64,000 nucleotides of DNA from a virus (Duplodnaviria; Caudoviricetes): the IMG/VR virus record IMGVR_UViG_3300028596_000001. One strand, written 5' to 3'. The translations under genes were made by a program, and so were the position numbers. Positions 18,976-39,347 of the stretch are shown here, piece by piece. Below the pieces are notes generated by a model. The model was not told where the DNA came from, did not search any database, and was given only the letters and a program-made list of their open reading frames with translations. Each line of letters begins with the position of its first letter. Within the stretch, counting starts at the first letter, position 1.

Positions 18976-20643
18976 TTAATTGCCCAGGCTAACAGAGTCC
19001 AGTTTGTTGCTGACCATGATGCTCGACATGTTCGCCAGGATCTTGGCAGTCTGCATACCACCTTTCAGAGCGGTGATGGACGCGTAGGCCGTGTCGTAGA
19101 TCCCGAGTTCTTCAGGCTGGCCACGACGACCGGTTGCCAGATCGAGTACATCTTTCTGCTCGTTGGCGTCCTGGAAGATACCTTCCATGAGGATTTCGTT
19201 TTGCTTGTGCGCAACGTCGATAACCCCACCGAGGATAGCCTTCCATTCGTTCGGGAACCAGATGGTTTCCGGGCCGGCGACTTCCTGCTCCACGAGCACC
19301 GCTACGGTGTCCATTGCCTTGATGAGGGTAGTACCAACCCCAGGCACGATACCGTTCACCAGCGCGCTCTTGACCGCCTTGATGACGTCTTCGAAACGGT
19401 CCTTACGTTCCTTCACGTCAGATTCGGTTTCGCCACCGACCCAGATGGTGATTACCTTACCGGTCATATTCCGGATACGGGTTTCGTCGAAACGAGCACG
19501 ACGGTTGAAACGGTTCAGTCCGTCATAGTTACCCAGCGCTTCACTGATCTCTTCCACACGCTCAACGATACGCGCCTTGGCTGCTTCACCAGGTTCGAAG
19601 ATCGAACGTACGTTGTTGGTAGTGAGCGGATCGGTAACCATGGTGATGTCGGTGTGCAGTACCTGGTCCAGGTTGGCGAACATAGGAACACCGAACATGA
19701 TAGCCAGGTCTTGCATCATCAGGCTCCCTACCGAGCCACCAGCACCGTTTACACGGCAACCGACGAACTGCATGTTCAGAGGAACCTGTTGCTGGGCTGC
19801 CCGCTGTTGCAGAGCGCCGTTGAAAGCGATCACCACGTTGTCCATGTTGGTCTCGATCGAACGAGTGATCAACAGGACCGTGACCAGACCTTCTTCGTGT
19901 TTGACGTCCTTGAAATGTTCCAGTACCGCGAACAGATCTTTCGGATCGTTACCACGAATGTAGTCATCGACGATTACCGGAATATAACGATCATAGGTAA
20001 CCTGGGTACGGTTCTTACCGGCATACAGCGGGTTGCTGTAGACGATGCCCAGATTCAGACCGTCGGTACGCACGACTTTGTCTTCGGCTTCCACACCGTG
20101 AACCAGTTCGATTGATGGGAACGAGTCTTCGTTTTCACGATACAGGTTCACCACCAGCGACGACAGCTTGACGTCGTTGTTCGACGAGGTGCGGGCCATG
20201 TCGTACAGGCGCTTGTCAGACACGTCGATGTGGATGGTGTTGTTCTGGAGCTCGGTGATCCACATCTGGCAGAGCTTGTCGATGAAAGCTTGTTCCTGGT
20301 AGGTATCGAACTCGCGATACAGCTTGAACAGTTCAGCCATCAGCAACGTGGTAGTGGTGGTACCGTCACCGCACTCTTCATCGGTCTTGATCGGTGCTTC
20401 GGTAGCCACCTTGTTGACCAGCTCTTTACGCGGGTCATTGAACTTGATGGAACGGGCAACGGTTACCCCGTCTTTGGTGACCTTGGGTTTGGTACCAGTG
20501 CTGATGACCGCCAGCTTACCGTTTGGGCCCATGGTCGCTACTACGGCCTTACGTACATCTTCGACCACTTCCGACACCAGTTCACCAGTTTGGGCGATGG
20601 TCAGGAAATCAACAATACCAGTGCTATTATCAAAACCGCGCAT
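18976..20643 (-). CDS. groEL: GroEL-like phage chaperonin
   Basis: ATMGPNG, VTKDGVTVA, GDGTTT, ERKDRFEDVIKAVKSALVNGIVPGVG, GIYDT; no GGM tail. Confidence 0.95.
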   Translation of the reverse strand: MRGFDNSTGIVDFLTIAQTGELVSEVVEDVRKAVVATMGPNGKLAVISTGTKPKVTKDGVTVARSIKFNDPRKELVNKVATEAPIKTDEECGDGTTTTTLLMAELFKLYREFDTYQEQAFIDKLCQMWITELQNNTIHIDVSDKRLYDMARTSSNNDVKLSSLVVNLYRENEDSFPSIELVHGVEAEDKVVRTDGLNLGIVYSNPLYAGKNRTQVTYDRYIPVIVDDYIRGNDPKDLFAVLEHFKDVKHEEGLVTVLLITRSIETNMDNVVIAFNGALQQRAAQQQVPLNMQFVGCRVNGAGGSVGSLMMQDLAIMFGVPMFANLDQVLHTDITMVTDPLTTNNVRSIFEPGEAAKARIVERVEEISEALGNYDGLNRFNRRARFDETRIRNMTGKVITIWVGGETESDVKERKDRFEDVIKAVKSALVNGIVPGVGTTLIKAMDTVAVLVEQEVAGPETIWFPNEWKAILGGVIDVAHKQNEILMEGIFQDANEQKDVLDLATGRRGQPEELGIYDTAYASITALKGGMQTAKILANMSSIMVSNKLDSVSLGN

Positions 20644-33967: not shown

Positions 33968-34645
33968 TTACATCACTTGTAGTCCATTGAGATTCAACAG
34001 AGTAAACTTACCACGACCAGGTTTCCACCCTTCAGTGTCGATGTAATAAGTGTTACCCAACTTCAACATATCCGTTACCGGGTTATGTCCCACTACCAAG
34101 GCGCGAACACCTGTAATCCTGGTAGTGTCTTTCTCTTCGAACCGTGCACGGCTGTACATGCACTTGTTCATTACCTTCTTGTGTTCCTTACGACGGCTAT
34201 CGTCACGCAGACGCGCTACAAGCTCATCCCAGCTGTCGTAAGCACAACCGGCATGCACAATACCAACTAACCCGTATTTGGTCTCTACCTCGATTGCAAT
34301 GGGCAGAGCATCAAAAGGAACAGAGAACAACTCCTGCTCTTGTGGGGTGAACGCTTTAAACCAACTACCGGCGTTTTCTAACCAACTGGGCGAGGTCAGA
34401 TAACGAGAAACATGGTCGTCATGATTACCCTTTACCGAGAACACCCAGTCTTTGTTTAACCAATTAAAAGCTTCACGGTTCTCCGGCCCACGATCAACCA
34501 GATCTCCTACAATGAACAAACGATCAATCAGTGGGTTGAACTTAATCCGGTCCAATTCCACCTGTAGGTAACTGAAGTGCCCATGCACATCACCTACAGC
34601 GATATCTCGCCCCTCGGTGTTTACTCCAAATCGCTTAACATACAT
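33968..34645 (-). CDS. Metallophosphoesterase (lambda NinI / PphA-like Ser/Thr phosphatase)
   Basis: GDVHG, VGDLVDRGP, GNHD, HAG, GHNP, IDT motifs. Confidence 0.9.
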   Translation of the reverse strand: MYVKRFGVNTEGRDIAVGDVHGHFSYLQVELDRIKFNPLIDRLFIVGDLVDRGPENREAFNWLNKDWVFSVKGNHDDHVSRYLTSPSWLENAGSWFKAFTPQEQELFSVPFDALPIAIEVETKYGLVGIVHAGCAYDSWDELVARLRDDSRRKEHKKVMNKCMYSRARFEEKDTTRITGVRALVVGHNPVTDMLKLGNTYYIDTEGWKPGRGKFTLLNLNGLQVM

Positions 34646-35216: not shown

Positions 35217-35244
35217 CTATCTAGCGGTGTTACCCGCTAGATAG
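35217..35244 (-). terminator. Hairpin closing the membrane operon
   Basis: CTATCTAGCGG-TGTTAC-CCGCTAGATAG with adjacent A-run. Confidence 0.65.
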
Positions 35245-35256
35245 CCACACTGCTTA

Positions 35257-35814
35257 CTACTTGATAGTAGCTTCGCGCTTGCCGGTAGCAAAGGCGTTCT
35301 GGGTTGCTTCGTCAGACACGATCCGGCACATGGTCAGTACGTCTTTCTTCGGGAAGCCTGCCATCTTCAACAGCCAGCCACGAACCAGGTAGTCACGGGT
35401 GGTTTCGTACTGGGTACACAGTTCGATCTTGCGGTCCTGGGAAATCTTGAATTCAGAACCACCGCCGTCGATGATGTCATGGACTTTCAGGAACAGCTTC
35501 GAATCCACAGTGGGGTTCTGTTCCTGGATCCATTGCATCGTAGCCTGACTACCATTCTTGCCGTAACGACCTTCCACCGCAGCCTGCACCACTTCCTTGA
35601 GGGAGTTGGTGTACTGCTTGTTCAGACCCACAGCATCCTGGATCTTGATGGTGGTGGTGCTCAACACGTTTTCACTTTTGGTGTTGAGTGCCTTGATGTC
35701 GTTTTCGAAGGTGATCGCGGTGTCGTGCATGCTCTGGTAGCCCAGGAACAATGCACCAGCCACACCGCCGATGATCAGAAACAGCACGCCAACAACAATA
35801 CCAGCTACTTTCAT
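35257..35814 (-). CDS. LemA-like membrane-anchored protein
   Basis: N-terminal TM followed by helical domain (WIQEQNP..LFLKVHDII..Y..W..AGFP). Confidence 0.55.
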   Translation of the reverse strand: MKVAGIVVGVLFLIIGGVAGALFLGYQSMHDTAITFENDIKALNTKSENVLSTTTIKIQDAVGLNKQYTNSLKEVVQAAVEGRYGKNGSQATMQWIQEQNPTVDSKLFLKVHDIIDGGGSEFKISQDRKIELCTQYETTRDYLVRGWLLKMAGFPKKDVLTMCRIVSDEATQNAFATGKREATIK

Positions 35815-35832
35815 TTTCTTGCTTTCCTTGAG

Positions 35833-36927
35833 TTATGCAACGTCTTCTTTAATTACATACACCGCGATACCGATGGCGGAAGCCAGGTTCAGCAATACCA
35901 TGGTAACAATTACCCAGGTGGGCGGTATCCACCCGTTCTTCATGTATTCGAACTTCTTGTTCGAGACACGTTTGAAGTCTTCTTTGATCAGATGGTACTG
36001 TTCTTGCACCAACTGGTCAGTGAACTTACGTTCGTAGGTCATACTCTGGAGTTGCTTGAGCATGATCTGGTTATCTTGCCCGTCAGCAAACGACATGGCC
36101 CGAGCCCACTTAATGTTCTCTTCATCGTCGATGCCATAGAACAAGATTACGTCATTCTTACGAGCACCACTCCAATACTCCATGAGAGCATAGAAATAGT
36201 CGTCAGGGTTCTGCGTTACTACCAGGATGACGTTAAGTTGCTTGGTAGGGCCATCATGACTGAGTTGCGCATTCAGCCAGATGTTGATACCATCGTAATC
36301 CGTATTAACCCCAGGATCCTGGACAACACGGTTGAAACGATAGTAGTCGTACGGTTTTGGATATGCGGGCAGTTTACCAACGTAGCGGTTATGCATGGCT
36401 GTATCCACTTTGAAGCGGTTACGGTCCAGTAGCATGAAGTTAGTAACCATCCCAACCTGTGCAACCGGGTCGGCTACCTCCACCACGCTGTAACGCTCTG
36501 GCATCTTCAAGCCGCGACGATCCGCACGATCAATGGTGTACGTCCCCAAAGTCGTGTAAACGTCCCAGTCGACGTCGTAGGAGTGCTCATCGCAGTACTT
36601 GGGCCGACATACCGTACGGGAGCGCCGCTTACCCTTGGAATCCGTGTAACTCTCCGACTTACAGGTCTCCCCGCACTTGTACTGGTGACTACAGGACACG
36701 TGTACCGAGTCCTTACCAGTAACAAATCCGTTAAAGATGCTGATGTCAGACGTTTGGGAAGAAGCGGCTGCCGCGATAACACCCATACATAGCGCGGTAC
36801 TAACAATAGCACCCAAGCCCTGCAAGGCCCATTCTTTCGGAGTGATCTTGTGCGGGAAGAAGAACTTCGCGATCAAAGCCACCAAGAAAGCCGGTATGAA
36901 AACTAAAGGGAAATAAAACCCCATCAA
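35833..36927 (-). CDS. Membrane protein with Cys-rich loop and TPM-like domain
   Basis: Two N-terminal TMs, CSHQYKC..C..YCDEH, KQLNVILVVT..WSGARKNDVILFYG, C-terminal TM. Confidence 0.6.
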   Translation of the reverse strand: MMGFYFPLVFIPAFLVALIAKFFFPHKITPKEWALQGLGAIVSTALCMGVIAAAASSQTSDISIFNGFVTGKDSVHVSCSHQYKCGETCKSESYTDSKGKRRSRTVCRPKYCDEHSYDVDWDVYTTLGTYTIDRADRRGLKMPERYSVVEVADPVAQVGMVTNFMLLDRNRFKVDTAMHNRYVGKLPAYPKPYDYYRFNRVVQDPGVNTDYDGINIWLNAQLSHDGPTKQLNVILVVTQNPDDYFYALMEYWSGARKNDVILFYGIDDEENIKWARAMSFADGQDNQIMLKQLQSMTYERKFTDQLVQEQYHLIKEDFKRVSNKKFEYMKNGWIPPTWVIVTMVLLNLASAIGIAVYVIKEDVA

Positions 36928-37328
36928 CTACTCTCCTTATACTCCTTGTAGGCTTTGGCGTTTTCCTTAGCCTTATCTTCTCGACATACGAATGTATCAT
37001 ACACACCGGTGCAATGACGATAGTTGTAGTCTTTCGCCCAGGCGTCCAGATCACCCATGGTTTTTGCATAACCTAGCGCACACAGTAAAACAAAAGTGCC
37101 TAGGAGCAGCCAACCAACGAAGTTAGTCATTGGCGGGTCTTTCACAATCTTCACTGGCGGACGACGTGGTAGCACTGGCTTGTGCTTAGGGACCAACGGT
37201 AGCTTGGCGTGTGTTTCATACTTCCGTGACGGCGGAGGTGCCGCAGGAGCAGGAGGACGTTTGTAACTATGCCCTGGATACTCCTTGCCTTCCAGATCAT
37301 CAGGCGGGGGTATGGTGTCACGAGTCAT
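36924..37328 (-). CDS. TM + C-x8-C protein
   Basis: Start moved to ATG 37328; Pro-rich N-terminus, TM, CTGVYDTFVC. Confidence 0.7.
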   Translation of the reverse strand: MTRDTIPPPDDLEGKEYPGHSYKRPPAPAAPPPSRKYETHAKLPLVPKHKPVLPRRPPVKIVKDPPMTNFVGWLLLGTFVLLCALGYAKTMGDLDAWAKDYNYRHCTGVYDTFVCREDKAKENAKAYKEYKESS

Positions 37329-37330
37329 AA

Positions 37331-37540
37331 TCACCTCGGCAAACAAGAAATGAAGAAAACCCACATGCCGATAACAGCAAGGATCAGCAACCAAAACCAA
37401 AGGTCATCGTTCAACTCTTTGGGTTGGTCTGCTTTAGCTGTACCGGGTTTGCGTATGTATACAAATACACCAGTAGAAGGGTCGTCTATGACGACCTCTT
37501 CTTTGGCTATGTATTGTCCCTCAATTGGTTTTGAGGGCAT
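37331..37540 (-). CDS. Small C-terminal TM protein
   Basis: LWFWLLILAVIGMWVFFISC. Confidence 0.55.
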   Translation of the reverse strand: MPSKPIEGQYIAKEEVVIDDPSTGVFVYIRKPGTAKADQPKELNDDLWFWLLILAVIGMWVFFISCLPR

Positions 37541-37790
37541 TGAGTCCTTCCTCGTACTGTTGTCTGAGTTCCGCTTGTTTCAAGCGTACTTGCAGGCATT
37601 CAGGAGTGGCGTATTCTTCCGCACAGACAGTACGGTTGTGGGCGTCTTTAAGACGACGAGCATTTTCCCCGTCAACCTTGATGCCGTAGAACACCGCCCC
37701 ATAAACAAGGACTACGATAAGTGCGAATATAGCAACGACAAACCAGCACCCAGGTCCGCCCTTAATTAGGATTTCCCCCAGTCGTTTCAT
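37521..37790 (-). CDS. TM + C-x8-C protein
   Basis: CAEEYATPEC. Confidence 0.7.
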   Translation of the reverse strand: MKRLGEILIKGGPGCWFVVAIFALIVVLVYGAVFYGIKVDGENARRLKDAHNRTVCAEEYATPECLQVRLKQAELRQQYEEGLNALKTN

Positions 37791-38017
37791 TTAAGCAACT
37801 CCTTTTGTCGACTTTCCAACAAGAGTTTCTCGATCTTGTACTGGTGGCAAGGAATGGTGTCGAAGCGACCAACACAATTGGTCTTGTTATCTTCACGGAT
37901 CTCGCCACGACGCATCTCAACCCACTTCTCTATTAGCAGTACGGAAGGCACGCCTATCACAACAATAATAGCAATGCGGCTCAAATACCACCACCACCAC
38001 GTATTACGTCCTCTCAT
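37787..38017 (-). CDS. TM + C-x8-C protein
   Basis: CVGRFDTIPC. Confidence 0.7.
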   Translation of the reverse strand: MRGRNTWWWWYLSRIAIIVVIGVPSVLLIEKWVEMRRGEIREDNKTNCVGRFDTIPCHQYKIEKLLLESRQKELLK

Positions 38018-38247
38018 TTATTTACTTCCTTCAGCTTGCGCTGGTACTCTTCTTCGATAACCGATTTCTGAAGCTTCTTAGTGTGGCAGGCAGGGAGATC
38101 CCACTCAGCCTCACAGTTCTTCTTCTGCAAGTCTTCATTGGCCTCGTAGAAACCATAGGAAAAGCAAGTAACACACAGCAAGAACATTCCAACTAACGAA
38201 AATACAAACCGGCCGCTGGTGCCGTCTTCGTCATCATAACAACTCAT
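38014..38247 (-). CDS. TM + C-x8-C protein
   Basis: CEAEWDLPAC. Confidence 0.7.
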   Translation of the reverse strand: MSCYDDEDGTSGRFVFSLVGMFLLCVTCFSYGFYEANEDLQKKNCEAEWDLPACHTKKLQKSVIEEEYQRKLKEVNK

Positions 38248-38480
38248 TTATTTAGTTCCTGGAGTTTTTGTTCGTAGGCTTCTTTAGCCTGTACTTTCTT
38301 TATGCGCTTTTCCAAACAGTCGACGGTTTCATATTCGACAGTACACAGATCCGCACGTTCACGCCGATCATATTCGGTAGACGCTTTGCCAATACCAATC
38401 AAGACAAGAATAATCACCGCCACCGTACTGAGGAGTTTTAATCCGTCCATAAAGGTGAAGCGGGTATCATTTCGACTCAT
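38244..38480 (-). CDS. TM + C-x8-C protein
   Basis: CTVEYETVDC. Confidence 0.7.
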   Translation of the reverse strand: MSRNDTRFTFMDGLKLLSTVAVIILVLIGIGKASTEYDRRERADLCTVEYETVDCLEKRIKKVQAKEAYEQKLQELNK

Positions 38481-38760
38481 TGCTCTCTCCCGCTTTAAGG
38501 GTTTCTTCGAGCGCCTTAGTCAGACAAAGAGGATTGTTCATCAGTAACTTACACTCCGATTTAGTGGGTGTGTTACGAATAACCTCTTGCTGCCGTTTGG
38601 CGTCTGCCAGGAACGCTTCGGTGGTCTTTTTGTAGTCAGCACTGAGGGCCGCCAGCTGTACCAAGAAAGAAATACAGATAGTAGGAATGGCTGCCATGCA
38701 AAACAAGAACAACCAATCCCAACGGTTAAGGCTACGTACTTTCTTTACGATCTGCTTCAA
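38467..38760 (-). CDS. TM + C-x8-C protein
   Basis: CKLLMNNPLC. Confidence 0.65.
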   Translation of the reverse strand: MKQIVKKVRSLNRWDWLFLFCMAAIPTICISFLVQLAALSADYKKTTEAFLADAKRQQEVIRNTPTKSECKLLMNNPLCLTKALEETLKAGESNESK

Positions 38761-39284
38761 TCGCCACAGCTCCCACCACCACTGTCGCCACCACTGCTGC
38801 CGCTATCGCCGCTATCACTACCACGGCCGTAGTCTGTCGGTGTATCGATAACGCAAGCGCTACGCTCAGGGCGACGGTAGCTGTCGTCATCACCGCTGGA
38901 CAGCACAGTATGTGCTACTGCCAGGTGCATGAGCGTATTGTCTGGTTCATGGTAACGTGGACCGGGCTGTTGGCCAGGATAATTCACACGACGCATTGGA
39001 GGAGGTGGTGGTGGTTGGCGATTCTGGCCAGTTAACGGATGTACTGGCGGAATAGAGCGCGTATAACCGGCAGGGGCTTCATGCATGCCGTAACCAGGAT
39101 TAACGCTAGATTTCCAGGTTGGGGTCTCGGGGCTTTCCATTGGCTCTTCCCCATGGTTTCTACGTAGGGCTTCAATGAACTCCTTATCCCCTGGCTTTAC
39201 CTTGATACGGCTACGGAACATCACGAAACCAACACACGCGCCACCCAGGCCAATTACACCCAGTACAATCGATCCCAAATCCAT
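38757..39284 (-). CDS. N-terminal TM protein with Pro-rich middle and Gly/Ser/Asp tail
   Basis: Ends GSDSGDSGSSGGDSGGGSCGD. Confidence 0.7.
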   Translation of the reverse strand: MDLGSIVLGVIGLGGACVGFVMFRSRIKVKPGDKEFIEALRRNHGEEPMESPETPTWKSSVNPGYGMHEAPAGYTRSIPPVHPLTGQNRQPPPPPPMRRVNYPGQQPGPRYHEPDNTLMHLAVAHTVLSSGDDDSYRRPERSACVIDTPTDYGRGSDSGDSGSSGGDSGGGSCGD

Positions 39285-39347
39285 AAATAATCTCCCGTGG
39301 TTAAAGTACCTACCGGAGTCCCGAAGGACCCCGATAGGATTTCTAAA

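Follow-up and report, generated by a model that had tools for sequence, protein, structure and literature searches.

Genes for LemA proteins and for TPM-domain proteins are commonly adjacent in bacteria. Some TPM-domain proteins are reported to be phosphatases or to bind nucleotides or metals. A search of the literature on LemA turned up no established function for the bacterial protein, and TPM-domain proteins have been proposed to be chaperone-like in the assembly of membrane complexes (PMC11237479). Two reports (PMC11237479; PMC13713150) describe a membrane-stress operon of Bacillus subtilis, the PspA-linked ydjG/ydjH (renamed samG/samH), in which a membrane-anchored TPM protein works with a Cys-rich zinc-ribbon membrane protein, and another (PMC13456599) describes how a TPM domain is completed by a small protein anchored in the membrane (AscG with AscF). 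Here we describe an operon of ten minus-strand genes, g1-g10, at positions 35257-39284 of a 64,000-nucleotide (nt) stretch of an uncultivated virus record (IMGVR_UViG_3300028596_000001), a stretch called the window below. The operon ends in a TPM-like gene (g9) and a LemA-like gene (g10), preceded by a cassette (g1-g8) that encodes small transmembrane (TM) proteins, most of them with a C-x8-C loop. What is new is a coherent family of very small membrane proteins of phages, previously without a model, added to a LemA/TPM-type phage membrane module.

The g9/g10 pair resembles the bacterial pair in several respects. Like bacterial LemA, g10 has an N-terminal TM segment and a helical domain; g9 has a TPM fold with a TM segment after the domain, as do many TPM-domain proteins; and, as is general knowledge for the bacterial genes, the two are adjacent. 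Unlike bacterial TPM proteins, g9 carries a Cys/His-rich beta domain and, at its N-terminus, two additional TM helices, and g9 and g10 form phage-wide families of their own (phrog_2087 and phrog_1383) that fall below Pfam thresholds. In comparison with samG/samH, g9 joins a Cys/His-rich module and a TPM-like domain in one chain. However, the phage unit is without a PspA or SPFH gene, the orientation differs in that the g9 domain is predicted to be periplasmic, and the likeness comes without shown sequence similarity.

The ten genes are listed here in order of transcription, with lengths in amino acids (aa) and, for g3-g6 and g8, the expect value (E) against a hidden Markov model (HMM) of the C-x8-C family.

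g1, 38757-39284, minus strand: 175 aa; TM segment at residues 5-23, basic flank RSRIKVK, proline-rich PPPPPPMRRVNYPG, acidic Ser/Gly tail ending in SCGD
g2, 38467-38760, minus strand: 97 aa; starts at a TTG that overlaps the stop of g1; TM segment, CKLLMNNPLC and a helix
g3, 38244-38480, minus strand: 78 aa; C-x8-C family, CTVEYETVDC; E 1.7e-14 against an HMM without window sequences
g4, 38014-38247, minus strand: 77 aa; C-x8-C family, CEAEWDLPAC; E 3.8e-12 against the same HMM
g5, 37787-38017, minus strand: 76 aa; C-x8-C family, CVGRFDTIPC; E 7.2e-20 against the same HMM
g6, 37521-37790, minus strand: 89 aa; C-x8-C family, CAEEYATPEC; E 1.2e-17 against the same HMM
g7, 37331-37540, minus strand: 69 aa; tail-anchored, TM segment at residues 49-67; without C-x8-C
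g8, 36924-37325, minus strand: 133 aa from ATG; N-terminal region of about 65 aa, TIPPPDDLEGKEYPGHSYKRPP, a TM segment, then WAKDYNYRHCTGVYDTFVCREDKAKENAKAY; E 1.8e-19
g9, 35833-36924, minus strand: 363 aa; phrog_2087 (E 4e-117); two N-terminal TM segments, beta-rich domain, TPM-like domain, C-terminal TM segment
g10, 35257-35814, minus strand: 185 aa; phrog_1383 (E 2e-59); TM segment at residues 6-24, then a helical LemA-like domain

A first-pass annotation, made from the sequence alone, had described ten minus-strand genes, mostly coupled by overlaps and each encoding a TM segment. This description was borne out. Every product has at least one TM segment (at least one window of 19 aa with a Kyte-Doolittle mean above 1.9), and overlaps of 1-20 nt are found at seven of the nine junctions: 4 nt at g1/g2, g3/g4, g4/g5 and g5/g6, 14 nt at g2/g3, 20 nt at g6/g7 and 1 nt at g8/g9. 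The remaining junctions are gaps of 5 nt (g7/g8) and 18 nt (g9/g10). The longest open reading frame (ORF) of g8 starts at TTG 37400; the ATG at 37325 is preferred as the most likely start because the proline-rich N-terminus that it opens is conserved in relatives. Megablast of the operon against GenBank phages gave no match. Searches of g1-g8 against Pfam, PHROGs and NCBIfam gave nothing beyond chance-level rows, and g1 had no match in any of the three.

The C-x8-C family

The six C-x8-C strings reported in the first-pass annotation are all present, that of g8 being CTGVYDTFVC, and position 4 of the x8 is aromatic in five of them; g2 has Met there. Among the 1207 ORFs of at least 40 aa on the 184-kb contig, the small ones (up to 170 aa) that combine a TM segment with C[^C]8C are g2-g6 and g8 only, all within 1.9 kb. 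Since all six such ORFs of the contig fall here, the array is not a chance pattern.

The six had been taken for paralogs, and profile searches upheld this for five, g2 being the exception. Leave-one-out HMMs run against all ORFs of the contig gave E values of 1e-6 to 1e-8 for g3-g6, 0.009 for g8 and 3.2 for g2. An HMM built from non-window sequences only recovered g3-g6 and g8 at E values of 4e-12 to 7e-20; the value for g2 was 0.73. The C-x8-C family is real, and its members in the operon are g3, g4, g5, g6 and g8. The g2 product has its architecture, not its profile, in common with the family; it is either a look-alike or a very divergent member, and is not filed as a member here. A clear g2 ortholog, with CPYVMYTPNC, is found in L008 (L numbers denote other loci compared).

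For a family search of 1.84 billion proteins, the seed was an alignment of 15 member sequences taken from the window and from three related loci. The family proved rare, with 60 cluster representatives matched at E <=0.001 and 16 of these at <=1e-10. A single layout is common to all 60: a short N-terminal tail, one TM segment, a linker, the loop and a charged tail, with median lengths of 14 aa for the N-terminal tail, 18 aa for the linker and 23 aa for the charged tail. The consensus loop is C-x-G-x-[YF]-[DN]-T-x-x-C, followed by a charged amphipathic helix of about 23 aa. Both cysteines are found in 60 of 60 members, the aromatic residue (Y, F or W) in 57, Thr in 56 and Gly in 44, and one member only has an additional Cys past the loop. 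The window proteins depart from the consensus in places: g4 is without Thr; g3, g4 and g6 are without Gly; and g2 is without Gly, aromatic and Thr.

Each window paralog is nearest to proteins of other phages, not to its operon neighbours, which argues for old duplications, and the orthogroups have recognisable, distinct conserved helix sequences. The paralogs thus appear to be old, specialised copies rather than recent duplicates. The g5 product belongs to an orthogroup marked by NTIPCHQxKIExLLLESR, with orthologs in L008, L010, L005 and L012. The g6 product belongs to another, marked by TPECLxxRLKKAELKQQYEE, whose orthologs include P0189, P0221 and L012:6311. The best-conserved member is g8, with 28-62% identity to 13 relatives in the alignment.

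The array had also been put forward as undescribed, and we found nothing to the contrary. The family is without a model in Pfam, PHROGs or NCBIfam, and a search of the literature on LemA/TPM in phages found no paper describing the g9/g10 pair or the C-x8-C array. A protein-atlas look-up of g5 gave only unnamed small clusters and generic TM-plus-helix models. When 50,697 phage records were searched with tblastn, the C-terminal part of g8 found none and g5 found four chance-level rows (E 0.3-0.6); hence no cultured relative is known. Twin-CX9C (CHCH) identity was considered and rejected by inspection, as these are membrane-anchored proteins with a single C-x8-C.

The family profile found nothing significant among PDB sequences. 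The best row, at E 0.13, was the second extracellular loop (EL2) of a taurine transporter of the SLC6 family, where HCNHSWNTPQC follows a TM helix; both sequences read C-x3-aromatic-[ND]-T-x-x-C. In SLC6 transporters these two EL2 cysteines form an extracellular disulfide. The transporter, however, is a eukaryotic 12-TM protein and the score is at chance level, which does not amount to homology. The EL2 loop, at most a convergent motif, serves as a structural precedent for such a disulfide-closed loop.

The g9/g10 pair and membrane topology

The two families of the pair are widespread among large virulent phages and co-occur, phrog_2087 (g9) being found in 482 phage records and phrog_1383 (g10) in 479. 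Carriers include T5-like Demerecviridae, Kuttervirus, ICP1, Agricanvirus, CBA120-like phages, and phages of Acinetobacter, Aeromonas and Sinorhizobium. The AlphaFold 2 (AF2) model of g9 (predicted local distance difference test, pLDDT, 94) has an alpha/beta domain at about residues 198-330 and a C-terminal TM helix at 336-360. This domain matched TPM proteins in AFDB with a probability of 1.00 and template-modelling scores (by hit) of 0.52-0.54. Against the solved TPM domains 3PVH, 2KPT, 7TBR, 5ANP, 2KW7 and 9H70 the probability was 0.98 at most and the scores 0.40-0.50; the best solved match was TLP18.3 (3PVH, probability 0.98), and cg2496, BA41 and Psb32 were also matched. The g10 model is all-helical (pLDDT 78). 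The g10 family profile had LemA (2ETD) as its best PDB match, at E 0.006 in two collinear blocks, and the top AFDB rows for the g10 fold were mostly named 'LemA family protein', with template-modelling scores up to about 0.6. In a Foldseek search of the PDB, LemA came at rank 49 only (E 1.0), and a representative-chain fold search gave generic helical bundles only.

Curated models count against these names. The Pfam model TPM_phosphatase (PF04536, gathering threshold 22.1 bits) did not match g9 and found nothing in the whole contig at E <=10. The LemA model (PF04011, gathering threshold 26.2 bits) did not match g10 at E <=1, nor did a six-frame search of the contig give anything at E <=10. When homologs were searched against Pfam, TPM was the commonest family for g9 (sub-threshold in 7 of 74 homologs, best E 5e-4) and LemA the commonest for g10 (sub-threshold in 5 of 44, best E 9e-4). 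The g9 protein has the alpha/beta TPM fold with a membrane anchor following it, and g10 has an N-terminal TM segment and a helical bundle of LemA fold. For g10 the LemA-like call is made because of the profile match in the PDB, the fold matches in AFDB and the sub-threshold matches of homologs. The earlier description of a TPM-like/LemA-like pair therefore stands as to fold and remote profile and fails at the Pfam thresholds: the names are justified as remote homology or shared fold, not as membership by curated thresholds.

The beta-rich domain of g9 contains C78, H80, C84, C111, H114 and D117 (C-x-H-x3-C ... C-x2-H-x2-D), which are invariant in 73 of 74 homologs. Residues 78-117 could be a metal site beside the TPM-like domain. 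Among the best cellular fold matches in AFDB are A0A1F5TC82 for g9 and A0A1F5TM68 for g10, whose accession numbers are neighbours; both may belong to a single genome, in which case the pair would also be found together in a bacterium or a prophage.

Each protein of the pair also has two cysteines that vary together. In g9, C88 and C106 are both present in 61 homologs and both replaced in 13; in g10, C133 and C163 are both present in 33 and both replaced in 11; in neither case is one found alone. Because such covariation is a signature of disulfide pairs, the g9 and g10 domains are predicted to lie outside the cytoplasm, a placement with which the short, basic loop that joins TM helices 1 and 2 of g9 is consistent.

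For the C-x8-C family we infer a cytoplasmic N-terminus and a periplasmic C-terminus (N-in/C-out), with a loop that is most likely periplasmic and disulfide-closed, as the first-pass annotation had proposed. Three lines of evidence favour this topology. N-terminal extensions of 32-108 aa, without a signal-peptide-like start, are found in 11 of the 60 members, and those of g8 and its close relatives, including the N-terminal 65 aa or so of g8 itself, are rich in proline and in lysine/arginine. Across the family the N-terminal flank of the TM segment has a net charge of about +2.2, with more Lys plus Arg and fewer Asp plus Glu, vs about 0 for the C-terminal flank. The third line is the disulfide-type covariation in the co-transcribed g9 and g10. 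In the short members alone the Lys plus Arg counts of the two flanks are nearly balanced, which speaks against the assignment; because their own counts are so close, the topology of the short members rests on homology to the g8-like ones.

The g1 product is predicted to have the opposite orientation, N-out/C-in, because a basic stretch directly follows its TM segment. This would leave g1, g7 and g8 with their proline-rich parts all in the cytoplasm. The motif T-[IL]-PPP-x2-L-x-G-x2-YPG-x2-Y-x-RPP opens both g8 of the window and the g8-like protein of L005 (L005:7416-7997). A proline-rich motif of the same YPG...Y-x-RPP type opens a g7-like tail-anchored protein in L008 (L008:5118-5384), and g1 bears a similar PPPPPP...NYPG stretch. 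The motif looks like a movable cytoplasmic linear motif.

Distribution of the cassette and possible roles

To survey the cassette, we located the contigs that encode the closest homologs of g9. Five related jumbo phages from metagenomes have the cassette upstream of g9/g10. L005, L008/L009 and L012/L013 are from phages of about 235-242 kb, and L010 is a 4.3-kb contig. The order common to them begins with a g1-like gene and one to five free C-x8-C genes and ends with a g8-like gene, g9 and g10; some have a g7-like gene just ahead of the g8-like one. Counterparts of g1 with the same layout start the cassette in L005, L008, L010 and L012, and g7 counterparts in L005 and L008 have a conserved C-terminal TM segment. 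In the complete genome behind L005, all five C-x8-C copies lie within that one cassette. The number of family copies per genome ranges from 0 to 6.

Our tentative preference, for a reading that is quite possible yet short of probable, is that the C-x8-C proteins are accessory, periplasm-facing subunits of the phage g9/g10 LemA/TPM-like envelope module. Pointing to such an extension of the module are the constant location of the cassette, the overlaps between genes, g8/g9 among them, the shared predicted compartment and the shared paired cysteines. On the periplasmic side of the inner membrane, the C-x8-C proteins would serve the module as accessories or adaptors, and their short helices might bundle with one another or with the helical domain of g10. 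By analogy with TPM-domain proteins, the module may take part in assembling or maintaining membrane complexes, by which the host envelope would be kept or reshaped as infection proceeds, and the proline-rich cytoplasmic tails might recruit a cytoplasmic partner. A bolder form of this reading, which we consider doubtful, is that the C-x8-C proteins are a new class of exchangeable, disulfide-stapled auxiliary subunits that plug into and retarget the LemA/TPM-like machine to different host envelope complexes, with the tails of g1, g7 and g8 coupling it to a cytoplasmic partner. If so, the module would be the phage's own organiser of envelope maintenance or remodelling, and the pair would gain its first function in T5-like phages, Kuttervirus, ICP1 and many jumbo phages.

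Several observations weigh against the preferred reading, in addition to the Pfam results and the flank counts given above. Two complete relatives, with g9 57-60% identical, keep g9/g10 and have no C-x8-C gene anywhere. In L011, with g9 68% identical, unrelated genes for soluble proteins lie upstream of g9 and no C-x8-C gene is there. The approximately 480 phage records that contain the pair have no C-x8-C genes upstream of it. Finally, two family members have been found in other settings: that of L014 has no g9 in the approximately 760 bases of contig downstream, and that of L015 is on a 1.5-kb contig with different neighbours. Because some 480 phage genomes and the two complete close relatives have the pair without the array, the linkage is accessory, not obligate; it is real and restricted to one lineage, and g1-g8 are a lineage-specific add-on to a widespread g9/g10 pair. 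The synteny of array and pair expected from the first-pass annotation is thus found in the five related phages, and breaks down in L011 and the two complete relatives. In relatives without the cassette, other, unrelated small TM ORFs lie upstream of g9 (L006:6453-6710; L007:7445-7672). Upstream of g9 there may be a hot spot for genes of small membrane proteins.

These same observations fit the main alternative, that the C-x8-C proteins are independent small effectors acting on host inner-membrane or periplasmic targets, and lie beside g9/g10 merely because the site is a hot spot. We consider this possible, if somewhat unlikely. It would explain why the cassette is dispensable, why the pair is so widespread without it, why L006 and L007 have other small TM ORFs at the site and why family members occur in the other contexts of L014 and L015; the distinct conserved helix of each orthogroup would suit distinct targets. 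Roles in superinfection exclusion, in interference with division or cell-wall synthesis, or in blocking membrane-embedded defence sensors can be imagined, and are speculation. The first-pass annotation had suggested a membrane complex acting in superinfection exclusion, envelope remodelling or the blocking of such sensors, and these suggestions are speculative too. On the other hand, independent effectors would not be expected to keep the same position directly upstream of g9 in five phages or to have gene overlaps throughout the unit, g8/g9 included. Further, only about 50 aa would lie in the periplasm, and no similarity to known exclusion, defence or anti-defence families was found in Pfam, PHROGs or NCBIfam, the PADLOC library not having been searched.

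The next alternative places the Cys-bearing C-terminal parts in the cytoplasm (N-out/C-in), with the cysteines reduced or binding metal across a dimer. In g3-g6 the Lys plus Arg counts in the 15 residues past the TM segment are equal to or slightly above those before it, the N-terminal tail of g4 is acidic, and in 33 of the 60 members a His, a potential extra metal ligand, directly follows the second Cys. Nevertheless, the proline- and basic-rich extensions of the g8-like proteins (36-108 aa) are very unlikely to be exported, the family-wide flank charges point the other way, g9 and g10 show disulfide-type Cys covariation, and two cysteines are too few for a single-chain metal site. We consider a cytoplasmic loop unlikely.

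It is very unlikely that the unit is lysis machinery made of spanin-like or holin/antiholin-like bitopic proteins. The periplasmic part of an Rz-type i-spanin is roughly 100 aa or more in length. The C-x8-C proteins resemble i-spanins in being N-in/C-out bitopic proteins with periplasmic helices and cysteines, which are functionally important in spanins, and g6 has a weak match to the Rz-like spanin family PHROG 1152 (E 0.005, 17.7 bits), a score that a TM segment plus a charged helix can yield. However, only one of the six has such a match, the periplasmic parts are much shorter than those of i-spanins at about 50 aa, there are multiple paralogs, no o-spanin partner, whether embedded, overlapping or adjacent, was found, and spanins have interchain disulfides where an intrachain C-x8-C loop is predicted here. 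Nor do the neighbouring genes include an evident endolysin or holin. A lipobox scan of the window gave two out-of-frame candidates, neither of them conserved in L005, L008, L010 or L012, and spanin identity was rejected. Least probable of all is that the hydrophobic N-termini of the short members are cleavable signal peptides releasing soluble, disulfide-stapled periplasmic peptides of about 45-50 aa: some have small residues at -3 and -1 (e.g. IGKA|S in g3), but the hydrophobic stretches are of TM length (19-23 aa), most members are without an AxA-like site, and the same segment is internal in g8-like members, where it cannot be a signal peptide.

Returning to accessory subunits of the g9/g10 module, the old, specialised orthogroups and the copy number of 0 to 6 would suit modular subunits, as they would a toolbox of envelope effectors. 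Should cassette and pair be functionally linked, the operon would illustrate the extension of a conserved envelope module in large phages; otherwise the C-x8-C family would still provide candidates for small binders of the host envelope. A practical limit is that no cultured phage is known to carry the family. The pair is found in about 480 sequenced phages, including the tractable ICP1, CBA120-like and T5-like phages, and its predicted periplasmic facing and covarying cysteines offer a starting point for genetics.

Flanking hairpins and source phage

Two hairpins bound the operon, both of them GC-rich with T-rich tails.

Upstream of g1, 39309-39338, minus strand: hairpin with a 13-bp stem that includes two G-U pairs, a TTCG loop, then TACTTTAA
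Past g10, 35217-35244, minus strand: terminator-like hairpin with an 11-bp stem and a 6-nt loop, CTATCTAGCGG-GTAACA-CCGCTAGATAG, then TTTTAC

The second is the hairpin at which the first-pass annotation had ended the run of genes, and it exists as described, with a T-run. The first follows the stop of the upstream gene and precedes the ribosome-binding site of g1, and is kept with compensatory changes in L005, L008 and L010. Only about 25 nt separate it from the g1 start, and for this reason transcription of the operon may depend on read-through, or may start at a promoter overlapping the hairpin. In a scan for sigma-70 promoters, sites were no more numerous than in shuffled sequence, a result that is uninformative given that such jumbo phages use their own polymerases.

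The window corresponds to bases 9278-73277 of a linear virus record of 184,196 bases, estimated to be 78% complete. Contigs identical to the operon stretch are found in several soil metagenomes and one wastewater metagenome; these DNA contigs are short and identical to the window, and so are uninformative on variation or expression. No RNA sequencing runs were listed as containing the operon stretch. Three gene products bear on the source. An SbcC-like protein of 861 aa shares 47-49% identity with proteins from Pseudomonas phage EL and from Erwinia phages Joad and RisingSun; an NAD-dependent DNA ligase is also encoded in the 64-kb window; and there is a GroEL-like chaperonin gene, as in phage EL. 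Given these three, the source is an uncultivated EL-like jumbo phage. The chaperonin gene and a gene downstream of the operon are located as follows.

18976-20643, minus strand: GroEL-like chaperonin gene (phrog_5725, E 5e-107)
33968-34645, minus strand: metallophosphatase-type gene downstream of the operon, with counterparts in L008 and L012 that have a recorded Pfam Metallophos match

A metallophosphatase-type gene often follows g10 in relatives, and because the L008 and L012 counterparts hold the same relative position, this neighbour of the operon is conserved too.

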